Below are positions 31,953 to 61,180 of a stretch of 64,000 bases of DNA, in pieces (positions within the stretch are counted from its first letter, which is position 1; the number at the start of each line of letters is the position of its first letter). The DNA comes from a virus (taxonomy: Duplodnaviria > Caudoviricetes). The stretch lies in the IMG/VR virus record IMGVR_UViG_3300042402_003952; one strand, written 5' to 3'. A program made the translations under genes and the position numbers. Under the pieces are notes generated by a model that worked only from the letters and a program-made list of their open reading frames with translations, was not told the origin of the DNA and did not search any database.

Positions 31953-32114
31953 ATGCCTAAAAATCAACTGAATAAAGACGAATTGAAAGTTCGTGTTTTA
32001 AAACTAAAAGATAAACTTCATAAAGATCATATTAGACCTGAAATGGATATGAAAGGACTTGCTCATAAATATCTGAATGAAGTTCTTGATATAATAGATG
32101 AGTACAGATATTGA
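31953..32114 (+). CDS. 53-aa hypothetical protein
   Basis: Hand translation MPKNQLNKDELKVRVLKLK...LDIIDEYRY. Confidence 0.55.
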   Translation: MPKNQLNKDELKVRVLKLKDKLHKDHIRPEMDMKGLAHKYLNEVLDIIDEYRY

Positions 32115-32541
32115 CTATGAAAATCCTTGGATTTATAATGGAGTGCCTTTTACTTCCTCTAATATTCAAGATTATTTTGGTTTTGTTTATCTTATCCAGA
32201 ATAATCTTACTGGCAAAAAATATATTGGAAGAAAATATCTTTGGCAGTTCCGTACTCCAAAGGGTAAAAAAAGAAAAGTAAAATCAGAATCAAATTGGAA
32301 GGAATACTATGGGTCTTGTCCGGAACTTAAAGAAGACATTGACAAATTGGGCAGAGAAAATTTTAGTCGAACTATCTTATCATTACATAAAACAAAGGGC
32401 AAAACAAACTTTGGAGAGACCAGCCAACTTTTCAAAAACGATGTCCTCACGGAGTCCCTTGACGACGGAGAACCCGCCTTCTATAATAGCAACATCCTTG
32501 GAAGGTTTTACCGAAAAGACTATTATGACCGCAACGACTGA
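32098..32541 (+). CDS. GIY-YIG nuclease-family protein
   Basis: GFVYLIQN..KKYIGRK, YYGS, FYN.NI. Confidence 0.8.
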   Translation: MSTDIDYENPWIYNGVPFTSSNIQDYFGFVYLIQNNLTGKKYIGRKYLWQFRTPKGKKRKVKSESNWKEYYGSCPELKEDIDKLGRENFSRTILSLHKTKGKTNFGETSQLFKNDVLTESLDDGEPAFYNSNILGRFYRKDYYDRND

Positions 32542-34056: not shown

Positions 34057-34325
34057 GATGTAATCCATAAAGCAAAATACAGGGGAGAGAAACCAAAAGT
34101 TTCCTCCCTTTTTTTATGCTTTGTGCCACTTGTTCAACTGGTCGTATCATTTGCCATTGGGGTCCAAACCCTGGTATATTACTTGAGTTGGTGGGGGAAC
34201 GAGACCCCAAGTGCCTAGGACCACTTCTGGAACTGGCACAAACCACTTGATTCCCAACGGGTTCTGTGGTATTCTTAAGGAGTGGTTGAGAGACCACCAG
34301 CACCTTGACAATCTAAACCTTTAAT

Positions 34326-35323: not shown

Positions 35324-35395
35324 TCCAGAATCGACTAACTGGCAGGTCAGCACCCTTTGAAGGTGTACGTCTAGGTTCGAATCCTAGTTCTGGAA
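35324..35395 (+). tRNA. tRNA-Gln(UUG)
   Basis: GCACC-CUUUGAA-GGUGU; U1-A72. Confidence 0.9.
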
Positions 35396-35396
35396 T

Positions 35397-35590
35397 TGCC
35401 CCTAATGGGGCAACAATCTGTCCAACACTGGGGTTCGACTCCCCACATCTCCACTCTTGGGGATGAACTGGCATTCGACTGGGCAGAGGGTTCTGAGAAT
35501 AAATCTCAACAACATCGTATCTTTCCGCAGAACTGCTGTTGCCGTTTGAGCAATAGCACTTTGAGCGAACTGGGGAGTAATCCCTTTTTC
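35397..35590 (+). ncRNA. ssrA: Two-piece (circularly permuted) tmRNA: acceptor piece ~35397-35453, intervening 35454-35458, coding piece from 35459; tag ORF 35505-35549
   Basis: T arm GGGG-UUCGACU-CCCC; acceptor GGGGAUG/CAUCUCC-A with G3.U70; D loop AACUGGCAUUCGAC; P2 UGGGCAGA/UCUGUCCA; tag LNNIVSFRRTAVAV*. Confidence 0.9.
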
Positions 35591-35591
35591 T

Positions 35592-35666
35592 GTTGGGTTG
35601 GTGCAATTGGTAGCATCTCGGTCTCCAAAACCGAAGATCAGAGTTCAAGTCTCTGGCCCTTCGCCA
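35592..35666 (+). tRNA. tRNA-Trp(CCA), two U-U mismatches in acceptor stem
   Basis: UCGGU-CUCCAAA-ACCGA; encoded CCA. Confidence 0.82.
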
Positions 35667-35667
35667 T

Positions 35668-35744
35668 ACCCTCTTAACTCAGTGGACCAGAGTGCTTGGC
35701 TACGAACCAAGAAGTCGCAAGTTCGAATCTTGCAGAGGGTGCCA
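35668..35744 (+). tRNA. tRNA-Arg(ACG)
   Basis: CUUGG-CUACGAA-CCAAG; encoded CCA. Confidence 0.9.
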
Positions 35745-35781
35745 TTTAAATCTAAATAGCAACAAGAGGTGTGATAGGAAA

Positions 35782-36252
35782 ATGGAATTAGTAGAACCAC
35801 ACTCAACTATACTAGTTTTGAATAGTTCTTACGAGCCACTACACTTCACTAATTGGAAACGTGCAATAGTTTTACTTTTCAAACAGAAAGCAAAACTTAT
35901 CTCCAAGAGAATTATTCGTTTGGTGAATTATGTGAAAATTCCATTTTCCTATGGAAGATCAGATTACCCGACGAGAGCACTCATCTATAAACGGGATGAT
36001 TATGAGTGTCAGTATTGTGAGTCTAAAAATGACCTTACAATTGACCACATAATTCCCCGCTCAAAAGGTGGTAAAGATACTTGGGATAATTTAGTTGCTT
36101 GTTGCACATCTTGTAATCTCAAAAAAGGAAATAAACTTCTTAAAGAGACTAATATGATCTTAAAGAGTATTCCGCAAGCACCAATTAGTAGAGTAATACT
36201 TGATATTCAGAAAACAAAAGTTTCTGAATGGAAGGACTATTTGTTTCAGTGA
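35782..36252 (+). CDS. HNH endonuclease (McrA-like) inside tRNA array
   Basis: CQYC...TIDHIIPRSKGG..WDNLVACCTSCNLKKG. Confidence 0.88.
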   Translation: MELVEPHSTILVLNSSYEPLHFTNWKRAIVLLFKQKAKLISKRIIRLVNYVKIPFSYGRSDYPTRALIYKRDDYECQYCESKNDLTIDHIIPRSKGGKDTWDNLVACCTSCNLKKGNKLLKETNMILKSIPQAPISRVILDIQKTKVSEWKDYLFQ

Positions 36253-36495: not shown

Positions 36496-36535
36496 CTTGA
36501 CAATCAAACTTAAATAGTTTATAATTGTCTTATAA

Positions 36536-37187: not shown

Positions 37188-37214
37188 CTTGCATAAATAT
37201 TGAAAAAGAGTATA

Positions 37215-37649
37215 ATGGAAAAACTGTTTAAACTTTTAAGTGATGCTCAGTCATCACTTTTTGTTTTATTTCATAAAACTTGGGCATTTCATTGGAATGT
37301 AGTTGGTGAAGATTTCACACAACTACATCAACTCTTTGGTGGACAGTATGAGACTATGTTTGAAGAGATTGATCGTCTTTCTGAACATATGAGATACTTA
37401 AATGTAAAACCATTAAGTTCTCTTTCAAGAATGCTTGAAGTGACTCAAATCAAAGAGTCTGCAAGTTCAACTGGAGCAAAAGAAATGCTTCAGGAACTTC
37501 TGGATAATAACACCAAGTTTTGTGAGTTAATGGCAGAGATTTCGGAAGAAGCAGAAGAACAAAAGTCTTATGCAACTGCCAATCTAGTTCAAGACTTAAT
37601 GGAATCTCATGGTAAATTTGTATGGATGTTGAGATCACATTTACAGTGA
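37215..37649 (+). CDS. dps: Dps/ferritin-like DNA-protection protein
   Basis: HWNVVGEDFTQLHQLF..QY..EEID..EH ferroxidase motif; W(M)L at C-terminus. Confidence 0.9.
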   Translation: MEKLFKLLSDAQSSLFVLFHKTWAFHWNVVGEDFTQLHQLFGGQYETMFEEIDRLSEHMRYLNVKPLSSLSRMLEVTQIKESASSTGAKEMLQELLDNNTKFCELMAEISEEAEEQKSYATANLVQDLMESHGKFVWMLRSHLQ

Positions 37650-38444: not shown

Positions 38445-38560
38445 GACACTTTGCTCATTTAATTTTGGATAATCAGGTTTCGCTTTTTATCCTTTGCTAC
38501 CTCTTGACAATGGTTCCAATCATGGGTATAATGATTATACACCAAACAAAAGAAAAATAA
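38441..38560 (+). CDS. 39-aa membrane protein
   Basis: Hand translation MRHFAHLILDNQVSLFILCYLLTMVPIMGIMII; ATGA coupling. Confidence 0.5.
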   Translation: MRHFAHLILDNQVSLFILCYLLTMVPIMGIMIIHQTKEK

Positions 38561-38652: not shown

Positions 38653-38880
38653 ATGAAAATGCAAGAACTAGAAGAACTTCAATCCTTTACAGTCGAAGAG
38701 TTTCAATCTGATTTTGACAATCTAATACAAAGAGTAGAAAACGGTGAATCATTTATCATACGAGATGGAAATAATAGCGCAGTGATAGTTCCTTACAACG
38801 AAACCATAAAGTACGCAATAGAATCAACTGTGGATGACGAACTGATACGTCTTCACACAGACCACGAAGAAGGTTCTTGA
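38653..38880 (+). CDS. Phd/YefM-like antitoxin-fold protein (orphan)
   Basis: SFTVEEFQSDFDNLIQRVENGESFIIRDGNNSAVIVPY resembles the Phd/YefM N-terminal pattern. Confidence 0.55.
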   Translation: MKMQELEELQSFTVEEFQSDFDNLIQRVENGESFIIRDGNNSAVIVPYNETIKYAIESTVDDELIRLHTDHEEGS

Positions 38881-38919
38881 CACAGAGTTCCAGATCCTCT
38901 ATAATAGATTCAGATTCAA

Positions 38920-39157: not shown

Positions 39158-39778
39158 ATGAGTTGTAAAAAGCAAGGTTTATTTGATAAACATCATATTG
39201 TCCCAAGATATATGGGTGGGACAGATAACTTTGATAATTTGGTTACAGTATCGAGGACTTGCCATACGATGTTTCATTATTGTAACTGGAATCTATGGAA
39301 CAACAAAGAAGATTATATTGCGTATAAAGGATTGTCTTCTCAAATAACAAAACAAGATATAATTAAAGAGACTGCTAGTATTGCTGGTAAAAAATCTTAC
39401 AAAAATGGAACTGGGTTATTTTCTCTAACAAAAGAAGAAAAGAAAAAAGCATCTTCAAAGGGAGGTAAAAAAGCAGGGAAATATATGTCACAATCTATGT
39501 GGATAAATGATGGAACACAAAATAGAAGAATATTAAAAATCGAAATATTACCTGATGGTTGGGTAGCAGGTAAAGTTAAAAAGAAAAAAAGAAAAAGATA
39601 TGGAAGAAGTTGGGACGAATATATGGATACATTTAAAGAGGAATATCAAAGTAGAATTGAATACTTAAATGGAGTTGACTTGACAAAATGGGGTATTAAG
39701 ACTAAAATTGCTAATGACTGGGGCATTTCAAGAACACAAGTAAATAGATTTCTTGAAAAACACTATTTACCAGCATAG
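39158..39778 (+). CDS. Free-standing HNH homing endonuclease
   Basis: HHIVPRYMGGTDNFDNLVTVSRTCHTMFHYCNW; related to the psbA intron ORF. Confidence 0.85.
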   Translation: MSCKKQGLFDKHHIVPRYMGGTDNFDNLVTVSRTCHTMFHYCNWNLWNNKEDYIAYKGLSSQITKQDIIKETASIAGKKSYKNGTGLFSLTKEEKKKASSKGGKKAGKYMSQSMWINDGTQNRRILKIEILPDGWVAGKVKKKKRKRYGRSWDEYMDTFKEEYQSRIEYLNGVDLTKWGIKTKIANDWGISRTQVNRFLEKHYLPA

Positions 39779-58656: not shown

Positions 58657-58682
58657 GAGTCTCTCATAACTCTTAACATTGT

Positions 58683-58765
58683 TAAACACCCATTAACCGA
58701 GACCTATGGGGTGTATAAATTACGTCTCTCATATCTTCTCTAGGGGTGAGAAGAAATATTGAACC
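58683..58765 (+). ncRNA. PhotoRC-II-like RNA motif in psbA leader
   Basis: ACACCCAU/AUGGGGUGU and GAGAC/GUCUC pairings; position upstream of psbA; identity recalled, not searched. Confidence 0.6.
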
Positions 58766-58806
58766 CTGTTCGTCCCCACGAACTCTTACTTAACCCTTTT
58801 TCAAAT

Positions 58807-61180
58807 ATGACTGCTTCAATCGCTTCACGCCGTTCTGGCGAAAACCTCTGGGAACAATTCTGTTCCTGGGTAACTTCAACCGATAATAGACTGTATGTTG
58901 GTTGGTTCGGAGTCCTTATGATTCCTTGCCTTCTTGCTGCTACAACTTGTTTTATTATCGCTTTCATCGGTGCTCCCCCTGTAGACATAGACGGTATCCG
59001 TGAACCCGTTGCTGGTTCACTAATGTATGGAAACAACATCATCTCTGGTGCTGTTATTCCAAGTTCTAATGCCATTGGATTGCATTTTTACAGCATCTGG
59101 GATGCTGCTTCTCTTGATGAGTGGCTTTATAAATAATATTGGGTCACTTTAAATCGGGTGAACTGCTGGAAAGCTAAGTTCTTTATGAAACACAAACATC
59201 ACCTTACTCCAAAATATCTTGGTGGTTCTAACGAATCCCAAAATCTTGTAGAAGTTTCTACAACTCAACACGCTATGTTTCATTATTGTAACTGGCGTCT
59301 TTGGGGAAACGAAGAAGATAAGATTGCTTGGAAAGCACTTGCAGGATACTCTAAAAAAGAGGAAATAATTCATCAAGTTATTTCTCTTGCAGGTAAAAGA
59401 GGTGGTAAGGTTGCAAAAGAAAGCGGACAACTTCGGTCTGCTGCTCTTAAACAACCAAGAAGTGTAAGGCAAAAGATTGGTAAAAATCTTATCAACTATG
59501 CCTACAAAAATCCAAAGAATGCAACACAAGAAACTCTTACTAATAGAAAATACAGTAAAGTATTTCACATTTATGAAAAACTAACTGAAAGGACTATTGG
59601 TAATCATCTTGGGGATGTAGTTTTTAATCCAGAAGAAGATAAAACACTCAAAACTGTTTGTTCTATTATTCTGGAAAAATATGGGGTAAAAGTTTATCCT
59701 TCACATCTTAATAGTGTTGCTAATGGAAATAGACTTTTAACAAGTGGTATTTCTTGTAGTTGGATTTTAGAGAATATGCCAATCAGCATCCAAGCCACAG
59801 ACGATACTTCTGTGGAAGGTTCAGAGACTACTGGGTTCAACAAGCGTGTTGAGTAATACCAGATTAGCGCCCGACATCTTATAAAAAATAAGATGAAGAT
59901 ATAGTCCAGTCCATATGGAAACATATGGTTCCCCCGACTGCTATAATGGGGGTCCTTTCCAACTTGTTGTCTTCCACTTCCTCATCGGCATCTACTGCTA
60001 TATGGGTCGTGAATGGGAACTCTCTTACCGTCTAGGTATGCGCCCTTGGATTATGGTTGCTTATAGCGCACCTGTTGCTGCTGCGAGTGCTGTATTCCTG
60101 GTCTATCCTTTCGGTCAAGGTTCTTTCTCTGATGCGATGCCTCTTGGTATCTCTGGTACATTCAACTACATGCTTGTATTCCAGGCAGAGCACAACATCC
60201 TGATGCACCCCTTCCACATGCTTGGAGTTGCTGGTGTCTTCGGTGGTTCTCTTTTCTCTGCTATGCACGGATCTCTTGTCACCTCTAGTCTTGTACGTGA
60301 GACTACAGAAAATGAGTCACAGAACTACGGATACAAGTTCGGACAAGAAGAAGAAACCTACAACATTGTAGCTGCTCATGGTTATTTTGGTCGCCTTATC
60401 TTCCAATATGCTTCCTTCAATAACTCACGTTCACTTCACTTCTTCCTTGCTGCTTGGCCCGTTGTAGGCATCTGGTTCACTGCTCTTGGTGTTTCTACAA
60501 TGGCTTTTAACCTCAATCGTCGGGGTCCCGTCTTAGCAATTTGACGGTAAACATCGGGTGAACTGCTGGAAGCCCTCCATAAATGGGTAATCAGCATCCA
60601 AGTCCAAAGTACACTTTGGAAAGGTTCAGAGACTACCTGAGGAGTTCAGTCTCCTTAATAACAGGAATAAGTGCCCGACATCCTAAATGGATGAAGATAT
60701 AGTCCACTCCTTAAAGATGGTAAATTTAAGGGTTCAGTGCAACGGTTTTAATTTCAATCAGTCCATCATTGACTCACAAGGTCGTGTCCTTAATACTTGG
60801 GCAGATGTACTGAATCGTGCAGGTCTCGGAATGGAGGTCATGCATGAACGGAACGCTAGATTTGTTGGTGTTCTTGCTTAGGAATAAGCATTAGTAAAAT
60901 CGGGTTAAACGGGGAAACTCTCTATGAGACAATCCCGTACCAAGTCAGAAAGGGTTTAAGTTTTCTGAAAGGTCTAACGACTAGATGGTGAGTCCCAACA
61001 ATAATCCATCCACGAATGCCCGACATCCAGAACGGATGAAGAGATAGTCTGAACTTACTAGTGATAGTAAGAAGTAGAGGATAAAGAACCACTACGATAA
61101 CAAAATTGCACAACTTCCCACTTGACCTTGCCGCAGCAGAAGCAACACCAGTTGCTCTTACTGCTCCCGCAATCGGTTGA
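58807..61180 (+). CDS. psbA: Photosystem II D1, four exons: 58807-59126, 59941-60513, 60740-60857, 61109-61180 (1083 nt, 360 aa)
   Basis: Joined exons restore [39 protein letters not shown] in one frame. Confidence 0.95.
59127..59940 (+). mobile_element. Group I intron 1 in psbA (814 nt) with HNH ORF
   Basis: P1 GAGUGGCU/GGUCACUU with U.G, terminal G, UCAGAGACUA and AAGAUAUAGUCC core. Confidence 0.92.
59185..59856 (+). CDS. Intron-encoded HNH homing endonuclease
   Basis: [29 protein letters not shown]; TATAAATA at 59128; 3' end overlaps intron core. Confidence 0.85.
   Translation: MKHKHHLTPKYLGGSNESQNLVEVSTTQHAMFHYCNWRLWGNEEDKIAWKALAGYSKKEEIIHQVISLAGKRGGKVAKESGQLRSAALKQPRSVRQKIGKNLINYAYKNPKNATQETLTNRKYSKVFHIYEKLTERTIGNHLGDVVFNPEEDKTLKTVCSIILEKYGVKVYPSHLNSVANGNRLLTSGISCSWILENMPISIQATDDTSVEGSETTGFNKRVE
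60514..60739 (+). mobile_element. Group I intron 2 in psbA (226 nt, no ORF)
   Basis: Exon ends in U, intron ends in G; core shares AUCGGGUGAACUGCUGGAA, AAUCAGCAUCCAAG, UCAGAGACUA, AAGAUAUAGUCC with intron 1. Confidence 0.92.
60858..61108 (+). mobile_element. Group I intron 3 in psbA (251 nt, no ORF)
   Basis: P1 GGAACGCU/GGUGUUCU, terminal G, AACGACUA and AAGAGAUAGUC core. Confidence 0.92.

Follow-up and report, generated by a model that had tools for sequence, protein, structure and literature searches.

Picocyanobacteria of the genera Prochlorococcus, Synechococcus and Cyanobium carry a two-piece tmRNA (Rfam cyano_tmRNA, RF01851) whose gene is permuted, with its elements arranged in the order 5' hairpin, P2, T arm, acceptor 3' strand, spacer, acceptor 5' strand, D-loop analogue, tag, stop hairpin and 3' hairpin. 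In phages, tmRNAs have been known since the work on mycobacteriophages (PMC4131195). More recently, Buchholz et al. (2022) reported 53 permuted tmRNAs in phage genomes, 50 of them aquatic, with S-CRM01, S-SSM7, S-CAM1, S-CAM3 and S-CBWM1 included in their Table S1 (PMC9004378), and a 2025 tmRNA database holds 79 phage sequences (PMC11915505). A phage-encoded permuted tmRNA, also in a cyanophage, is thus already known and not new in itself. In the open-access literature we found no description of phage tmRNAs with a Val-ended tag or with a resume codon other than GCN, nor of the minimal architecture and the contrast between host (AA) and phage (V) tag endings reported below.

Here we analyse one such gene in a 64,000-nt stretch of viral DNA (the window) that comes from a T4-like cyanomyophage and carries nrdA/nrdB, a 22-gene tRNA array and group I introns. 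The gene has the same order of elements as the picocyanobacterial tmRNA and shares with it the G3.U70 pair, A73, an unencoded CCA, the NNIVSF tag core and A(-4)A(-3) before the resume codon; it differs in being about 90 nt shorter than the 288-nt cyano_tmRNA model and in having CUC where the picocyanobacterial RNA has GCU or GCG. The permuted tmRNAs of cultured T4-like cyanophages (S-CRM01, S-SSM7/S-SSM6a, S-CAM1, S-CAM3 and Sf-FS3, all in Table S1 of PMC9004378) likewise lie at or in tRNA clusters, and they share the sequence of the tRNA-like domain (TLD), GGGGTTCGAYTCCCC.CATCTCCA ... GGGGATG, as well as, in S-CRM01, the tag residues FRRTAV. Unlike the window gene, these cultured-phage copies have a longer P2/PK1-region segment and a GCN resume codon, are called by ARAGORN and pass both relevant Rfam cut-offs (74-128 and 78-99 bits). 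Strongly reduced phage derivatives of tmRNA have also been described, namely the TLD-only RNA of mycobacteriophage DS6A (PMC4131195) and CDS-less permuted tmRNAs (PMC11915505); however, the DS6A RNA comprises hardly more than a tRNA-like domain, while the window gene has a stop codon and a tag frame that is under selection.

Identity and fold of the RNA gene

The gene occupies positions 35396-35591 (+) and fills the entire gap between tRNA-Gln (35324-35395, +; Rfam tRNA, 57 bits), which lies immediately 5' of it, and tRNA-Trp (35592-35666, +), immediately 3', both called by ARAGORN. This position within the tRNA array of a T4-like cyanophage bears out the initial annotation, made from the letters alone, which had described a phage-encoded tmRNA. 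Among deposited phage genomes there was no near match to the window (the best had ~78% identity, in conserved genes), and metagenomes of lakes and other fresh waters, sampled in many studies, repeatedly contained its DNA. In IMG/VR, pattern scans picked up about 60 viral contigs that have a tmRNA gene of the window's type; about 17 of these, from lakes, have exactly its architecture and yield 14 unique sequences, which we will henceforth refer to as the window clade.

All elements named in the initial annotation were found where it had placed them, both on reading the sequence and in a single-sequence minimum free energy (MFE) fold (-71.3 kcal/mol, z = -4.4; 0 of 200 shuffles equally stable). 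The permuted order that it gave, with the T arm and acceptor 3' strand first, then a 5-nt segment, the acceptor 5' strand, the D loop and the mRNA-like region, is seen directly in the sequence and agrees with the fold. Specifically, reading along the plus strand, the gene starts with the hairpin UGCCCC-UAAU-GGGGCA (35397-35412, stem 35397-35402/35407-35412; Rfam alignment and MFE), the counterpart of the first hairpin in the cyano_tmRNA model, with compensatory changes in relatives (GCTCC/GGAGC, ACCTC/GAGGT). P2 is an 8-bp helix between UCUGUCCA (35417-35424) and UGGGCAGA (35480-35487), found in the MFE fold and supported by covariation. Between its strands lie the T arm (35429-35445; 5-bp stem 35429-35433/35441-35445, loop UUCGACU; Rfam alignment, MFE and covariation), the acceptor 3' strand CAUCUCC with A73 at 35453 (35446-35453; CCA not encoded), the spacer CTCTT (35454-35458), the acceptor 5' strand GGGGAUG (35459-35465), which completes a 7-bp stem in which G3 (35461) pairs with U70 (35450), and the D-loop analogue AACTGGCATTCGAC = AACUGGCAUUCGAC (35466-35479; Rfam and phage alignments), which in the window clade has a 1-nt insertion relative to the other phage and host copies. 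The tag frame (35505-35549) runs into a stop-codon hairpin with UGA in its loop (35535-35557; MFE), matching a hairpin of the cyano_tmRNA model, and the gene closes with a terminator-like hairpin followed by a U run (35572-35589; MFE), equivalent to the 3' hairpin of that model and replaced by compensatory changes in one relative (L012; GGAAGA...TCTTCC).

Neither the spacer nor the absence of an encoded CCA is unusual. Close clade members read CTCTT, TTCTT, TTCTC, TTAAT, TTATC or TTCAT in the spacer while its flanks are fixed, as expected of an excised segment. The spacer is 5 nt long in the window, 5-23 nt in hosts and 4-8 nt in phages, and CCA is encoded in no host or phage copy of the permuted tmRNA family; a 5-nt spacer and an unencoded CCA are thus normal for this family.

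We found that the tRNA-like core of the window matches that of the Synechococcus phages S-CRM01 and S-SSM7, and that the cyano_tmRNA scores of related viral sequences form a graded series (L032 159 bits, L003 142, S-CAM1 128, S-SSM7 109, L026 82, S-CRM01 74, L196 66, window 47) along which the tag, the TLD and the 3' hairpins are common to the window and the accepted tmRNA members. Homology to accepted tmRNAs settles the identity of the locus. Within the window clade the members are 94-100% alike, so that conservation there is by itself weak evidence; across 41 phage sequences, by contrast, RNAalifold recovered P2, the T arm and the acceptor stem unguided, with double compensatory changes in 14 of 24 pairs. 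The acceptor pair 5:68 covaries (UA/AU/CG/GC), as does P2, whose inner pair is CG in 23 sequences, AU in 15 and UA in 3; the alanine identity pair G3.U70 and the T-arm core GGTTCGAYTCC are kept in 41/41. The alanine determinant, A73 and the 8-bp P2 listed in the initial annotation are therefore not only present in the window but also, in the case of G3.U70 and P2, backed by comparison.

These results bear on whether the locus could be what is left of a tmRNA gene captured from a host or phage, decaying and kept only through its position in the tRNA array. A large internal deletion, the loss of the GCN codon and scores below threshold in every standard tool (see below) would fit such a history. 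Yet every helix is preserved, with compensatory changes, as are G3.U70, the T loop and the D-loop analogue; the 14 unique variants, which come from many samples, all have an unbroken tag frame, and an excess of synonymous codon differences speaks against decay. We consider this explanation very improbable.

Detection with standard tools, which the initial annotation had proposed as a check, gave a divided outcome. Default ARAGORN reported no tmRNA in the window; with a lowered threshold it placed a permuted tmRNA at the locus, but with spurious tags (ASSNLAEGAI and others) because it requires a GCN start. The Rfam cyano_tmRNA model aligned end to end with 47.2 bits (E 3.9e-12 in a 231-nt search) and, together with the NNIVSF core of the tag, this upholds the cyanobacterial likeness noted at the outset; tmRNA_permuted (RF04321) scored 40.4 bits (E 5.9e-5 in a 30-kb search). 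Both scores fall below the gathering cut-offs (70 bits for cyano_tmRNA, 47 for tmRNA_permuted), although the E-values of the two models in the 30-kb search, 9.4e-9 and 5.9e-5, respectively, are significant. ARAGORN did call the tmRNAs of S-CRM01, S-SSM7, S-CAM1/3, L026 and L032, and only two minimal forms, the window clade and a single further contig (L196), were both missed by it and under both Rfam cut-offs. Given that default ARAGORN and both Rfam models overlook the window clade, survey counts of phage tmRNAs will be too low. A 93-aa ORF at 35396-35677 was also considered as a protein gene and rejected, as it extends through tRNA-Trp and the RNA reading has covariation.

The shortened mRNA-like region and its resume codon

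The initial annotation had remarked on the small size of the RNA, and comparison with relatives locates the reduction. The distance from the T loop to the tag is 73 nt in the window clade and 71 nt in L196, compared with 88-100 nt in most phage copies and 99-124 nt in 119 host species. The window clade lacks the outer P2 and a pre-tag segment of ~25 nt: about 34 alignment columns of the other phage copies are missing between P2 and the tag, and the upstream segment is shorter where other copies extend P2. The 17 nt between P2 and CUC contain one 5-bp hairpin in the MFE fold, and neither PK1 nor an extended helix was found between P2 and the tag by alignment or folding. In E. coli, PK1 is important to tmRNA function. 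The small hairpin, UGAGA-AUAAA-UCUCA (35494-35508, +), is predicted from the MFE fold; it replaces the longer PK1-region segment of relatives, with the frame-setting A(-4) in the loop and CUC as part of the stem. In relatives only GAGA/UCUC is kept, with no covariation. A natural tmRNA of ~190 nt that is conserved in many lake viromes bears on the question of how little RNA trans-translation requires.

L196, from IMG/VR, is the only other minimal form that we found. It resembles the window in its simple 5' hairpin and in escaping detection (missed by ARAGORN; 66 and 43.8 bits, below both Rfam cut-offs), and differs in the base pairs of its P2 (9 bp), in its GCG resume codon and in its tag, ANNIVSFRRTLVSAAA; it sits on a long branch and its relationship to the window clade is unsure.

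At the resume position, all 14 unique members of the window clade have CUC, whereas GCN was found in 119/119 hosts and in 30/30 other unique phage sequences. The canonical alanine codon is thus absent from the window, as the initial annotation had stated, while the frame itself is present. Immediately 5' of CUC the window reads U35500 A35501 A35502 A35503 U35504, which is the host-type context U(-5)A(-4)A(-3); A(-4) and A(-3) are invariant in 85/85 unique host sequences, and in E. coli it is chiefly the corresponding A86 (-4) that determines the frame (PMC2481249). Given its alignment with the GCN codon of relatives and this host-like UAAAU context, CUC is the likeliest point at which translation would resume. 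The following AAC (35508) is a less likely resume codon, as it would have U(-4) and C(-3) where 85/85 hosts have A and A; the downstream peptide is identical in either case. Of the other frames, -1 has no stop nearby and +1 reads ...LLLPFEQ before its stop, and neither fits the pattern of synonymous change described below. Since GCA and CTC differ at 3/3 bases, CTC may have been acquired with the deletion junction rather than through selection.

The IMG/VR sequences L032/L039 and L026, also in phage tRNA arrays, encode the tag ANNIVSF(R/S)RTAVAV, which is the same or nearly the same as that of the window, including the AVAV end, and share with it the stop hairpin and the 3' sequence GCAATAGCAC; unlike the window, they have a GCA resume codon and 15-25 extra nt before the resume position.

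In agreement with the initial annotation, a tblastn search of the window with SmpB of Cyanobium as query detected no smpB (best E 2). Nor was smpB present in S-CRM01 or S-SSM7, in a tmRNA-bearing viral record of 249 kb (100% complete) or in a 65-kb fragment of the window clade; a Cyanobium control was positive. With no smpB of its own, the phage RNA must use host SmpB. The main rival to a rescue function is a decoy, in which the intact TLD would bind host SmpB (and AlaRS), the shortened mRNA-like part would support no resumption and host trans-translation would be inhibited, a role that has been proposed for the TLD-only RNA of DS6A. The deletion of the PK1 region and the outer P2, the non-canonical resume codon and the dependence on the host pool of SmpB would suit this scenario, and Hudson et al. 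(2014) note strong inhibition of tmRNA by a TLD-like molecule, perhaps through titration of SmpB (PMC4131195). A pure decoy, however, needs no tag, while here the tag frame is kept open with a prevalence of synonymous change (8:1 and 3:1 in the comparisons below), and neither the frame signal at -5/-4/-3 nor the hairpin at the stop codon has been lost. Furthermore, in L196, the sister minimal form, the resume codon is still GCG and the tag ends in AAA, and such a pairing of short architecture with canonical resume codon and tag is what would be expected of a coding tmRNA. We thus regard a decoy as unlikely.

Instead, we consider it likely that the locus is a working phage-borne gene for a two-piece tmRNA (ssrA) of cyanobacterial ancestry, reduced to its core. 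Such a gene would be transcribed together with the surrounding tRNA array. Ordinary tRNA-processing enzymes would act on it: RNase P would generate the 5' ends at G35459 and of tRNA-Trp, the tRNA 3' endonuclease would cleave behind A35453 and behind tRNA-Gln, and CCA would then be added as it is to host tRNAs and to the host tmRNA. In this way the 3' processing of tRNA-Gln would produce the 5' end of the acceptor piece, while the 5' processing of tRNA-Trp would trim the 3' end of the coding piece; owing to the placement of the gene between two tRNA genes, all four RNA ends could come from these two activities. The spacer (35454-35458) would be removed on maturation. Of the two resulting RNAs, the acceptor piece would measure ~58 nt before CCA addition and the coding piece ~132 nt, and they would stay joined through the 7-bp acceptor stem and the 8-bp P2. 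Host AlaRS would charge the molecule via G3.U70, and host SmpB would bring it to ribosomes that have stalled on broken mRNAs; infection should generate these in abundance. Resumption at CUC, set by U(-5)A(-4)A(-3), would add A-LNNIVSFRRTAVAV, such that non-stop products are predicted to end in ...ALNNIVSFRRTAVAV (or ...ANNIVSFRRTAVAV).

The tag peptide and its C-terminus

The tag frame (CUC AAC AAC ... GCC GUU UGA; 35505-35549, +, stop at 35547-35549) reads LNNIVSFRRTAVAV, 14 codons compared with 16 in hosts. This peptide is homologous to ANNIVSFRRTAVAV of L032/L039 and to ANNVVKFRRTAV... of S-CRM01, for which ARAGORN gives the tag ANNVVKFRRTAVTSLVAAL (for S-SSM7, ...AANNIVAFSRILTREFARTDELVTA), and all 14 unique sequences of the window clade combine CTC with LNNIVSFRRT(A/V)VAV. 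Across the 14 codons the window differs from the distant L039, which has the longer architecture, by 8 synonymous changes and 1 non-synonymous change (the resume codon), and from L173 by 3 synonymous and 1 non-synonymous. From this excess of synonymous differences we conclude that the tag peptide is under purifying selection.

The C-terminus of the tag sets phages apart from their hosts. Host tags are fixed on AA, which ends those of 119/119 picocyanobacterial species, whereas the window tag ends in AV, as initially annotated: it is hydrophobic at its end and lacks Ala-Ala. Among 44 unique phage tags, 37 end in V (22 AV, 12 LV and 3 TV), 5 in AA and 1 in TA, with 1 incomplete. V endings were found in at least five well-supported phage clades whose tags otherwise differ. 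On the tree, V-ended tags need 3-4 label changes, and the strongly supported branches are compatible with a single origin.

The contrast between AA in hosts and mostly Val in phages, an ending that here is under purifying selection, suggests that phages interfere with tag-directed proteolysis or avoid it. In Synechocystis, the tag endings AAV and ASV reduce reporter levels less than LVA (PMC2860132), a comparison in which V-ended tags were set against LVA and not against the native ...VAA. By analogy, the Val ending probably makes the tag a weaker degradation signal than the host ...PVAA, or one with a different address, and the phage may recycle ribosomes without feeding the usual route of proteolysis. 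We tentatively propose, as a possibility rather than an expectation, that selection has remodelled cyanophage tmRNAs, above all those of the minimal clade, so as to uncouple ribosome rescue from Ala-Ala-dependent host proteolysis; if so, the Val-ended tag would free ribosomes during infection while the tagged products are spared or re-routed, and the minimal clade would be an example of a tmRNA that functions with a leucine resume codon and no PK1.

Alternatively, the RNA may be a functional rescue tmRNA in which the Val ending and the Leu codon are inconsequential, ...AVAV being handled like ...PVAA and reflecting lineage history. The same Synechocystis reporters can be read in this direction, as V-ended ssrA variants still reduce protein levels (PMC2860132); Ala to Val is a single transition, the well-supported branches allow a single origin of V-ended tags, and the tags of cultured cyanophages also include endings in AA and TA, besides AAL (TA and AAL being non-AA endings, as in the window). 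Lineage history sits less easily with AA in 119/119 host species against 5/44 unique phage tags, with V endings (AV, LV, TV) in several clades of otherwise different tags, and with terminal codons that are kept under purifying selection. Overall, we see this explanation as possible but doubtful. The main interest of the locus lies in the combination of a selected, host-unlike tag with a clade that is invisible to current tools.

Genomic neighbourhood and related loci

Among assembled contigs from RNA runs, 1 contig of the metatranscriptome run X15 spans tRNA-Gln and the tmRNA of a relative, although DNA carry-over is possible; in runs X16 and X19 coverage is confined to the adjoining tRNA genes. 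The X15 contig, from a close relative, has G->A at 35544, which changes the last tag codon from GUU to AUU and the tag to ...VAI, and it also has hairpin and P2 variants typical of L013-type clade members. Three perfect TTGACA-17-TATAAT promoter matches were found in the tRNA array (36497-36525, 38504-38532, 38877-38905), all downstream of the tmRNA gene; the nearest promoter-like site upstream is at 34151-34180 (10/12).

The tRNA array also contains several protein-coding ORFs. Two HNH endonuclease ORFs lie within it (35692-36252 and 39158-39778; Pfam) and a SegE-type GIY-YIG endonuclease just 5' of it (32098-32541; Pfam), and homing endonucleases thus sit amid the tRNA/tmRNA cluster. A ferritin/Dps-like ORF was found at 37200-37649 (82.5 bits). 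A further ORF of 75 aa (38653-38880) has a weak match to Phd/YefM (21.4 bits against a cut-off of 29.8) and, as this match is below the cut-off, its identity as an antitoxin is not established. Elsewhere, the window contains the RNA motifs wcaG and PhotoRC-II (the latter at 58674-58767), and just 3' of PhotoRC-II there are three group I intron matches within 1.4 kb (59663-61071; 51.8, 80.3 and 67.2 bits), presumably a multiply interrupted gene of the psbA region.

Several related loci deserve mention. In deposited records, CDSs annotated as 'hypothetical protein' lie over permuted tmRNAs, namely at L002:1480-1698 (S-SSM7 SSSM7_025), at L206:400-540 (S-CAM3 gp053) and in S-CAM1 isolates; the S-CRM01 record has no feature at the tmRNA locus, and none of these phage records carries a tmRNA feature there. 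In L032/L039, a phage-type tag, ANNIVSFRRTAVAV, is joined to a host-like TLD (GGGGCTG/CAGCTCC, 159 bits) that the tree groups with hosts, a mixture that reflects either recent capture with convergence or recombination of the tmRNA gene. In L003 (5577-6413), and in L009 with the same sequence, the phage tmRNA gene has two copies of its tRNA-like domain at a distance of 740 bp, with identity over ~95 nt as far as GGGGATGcactg. The first copy then continues into unrelated sequence, in which a further T-arm-like motif occurs, as if an insertion into the tmRNA gene had regenerated the 5' part of the gene. Finally, glutamine riboswitches have been reported as attached to some marine phage tmRNAs (Buchholz et al., PMC9004378), and we found a glutamine riboswitch aptamer (61 bits) at L196:755-808, ~7 kb from the tmRNA of that contig.
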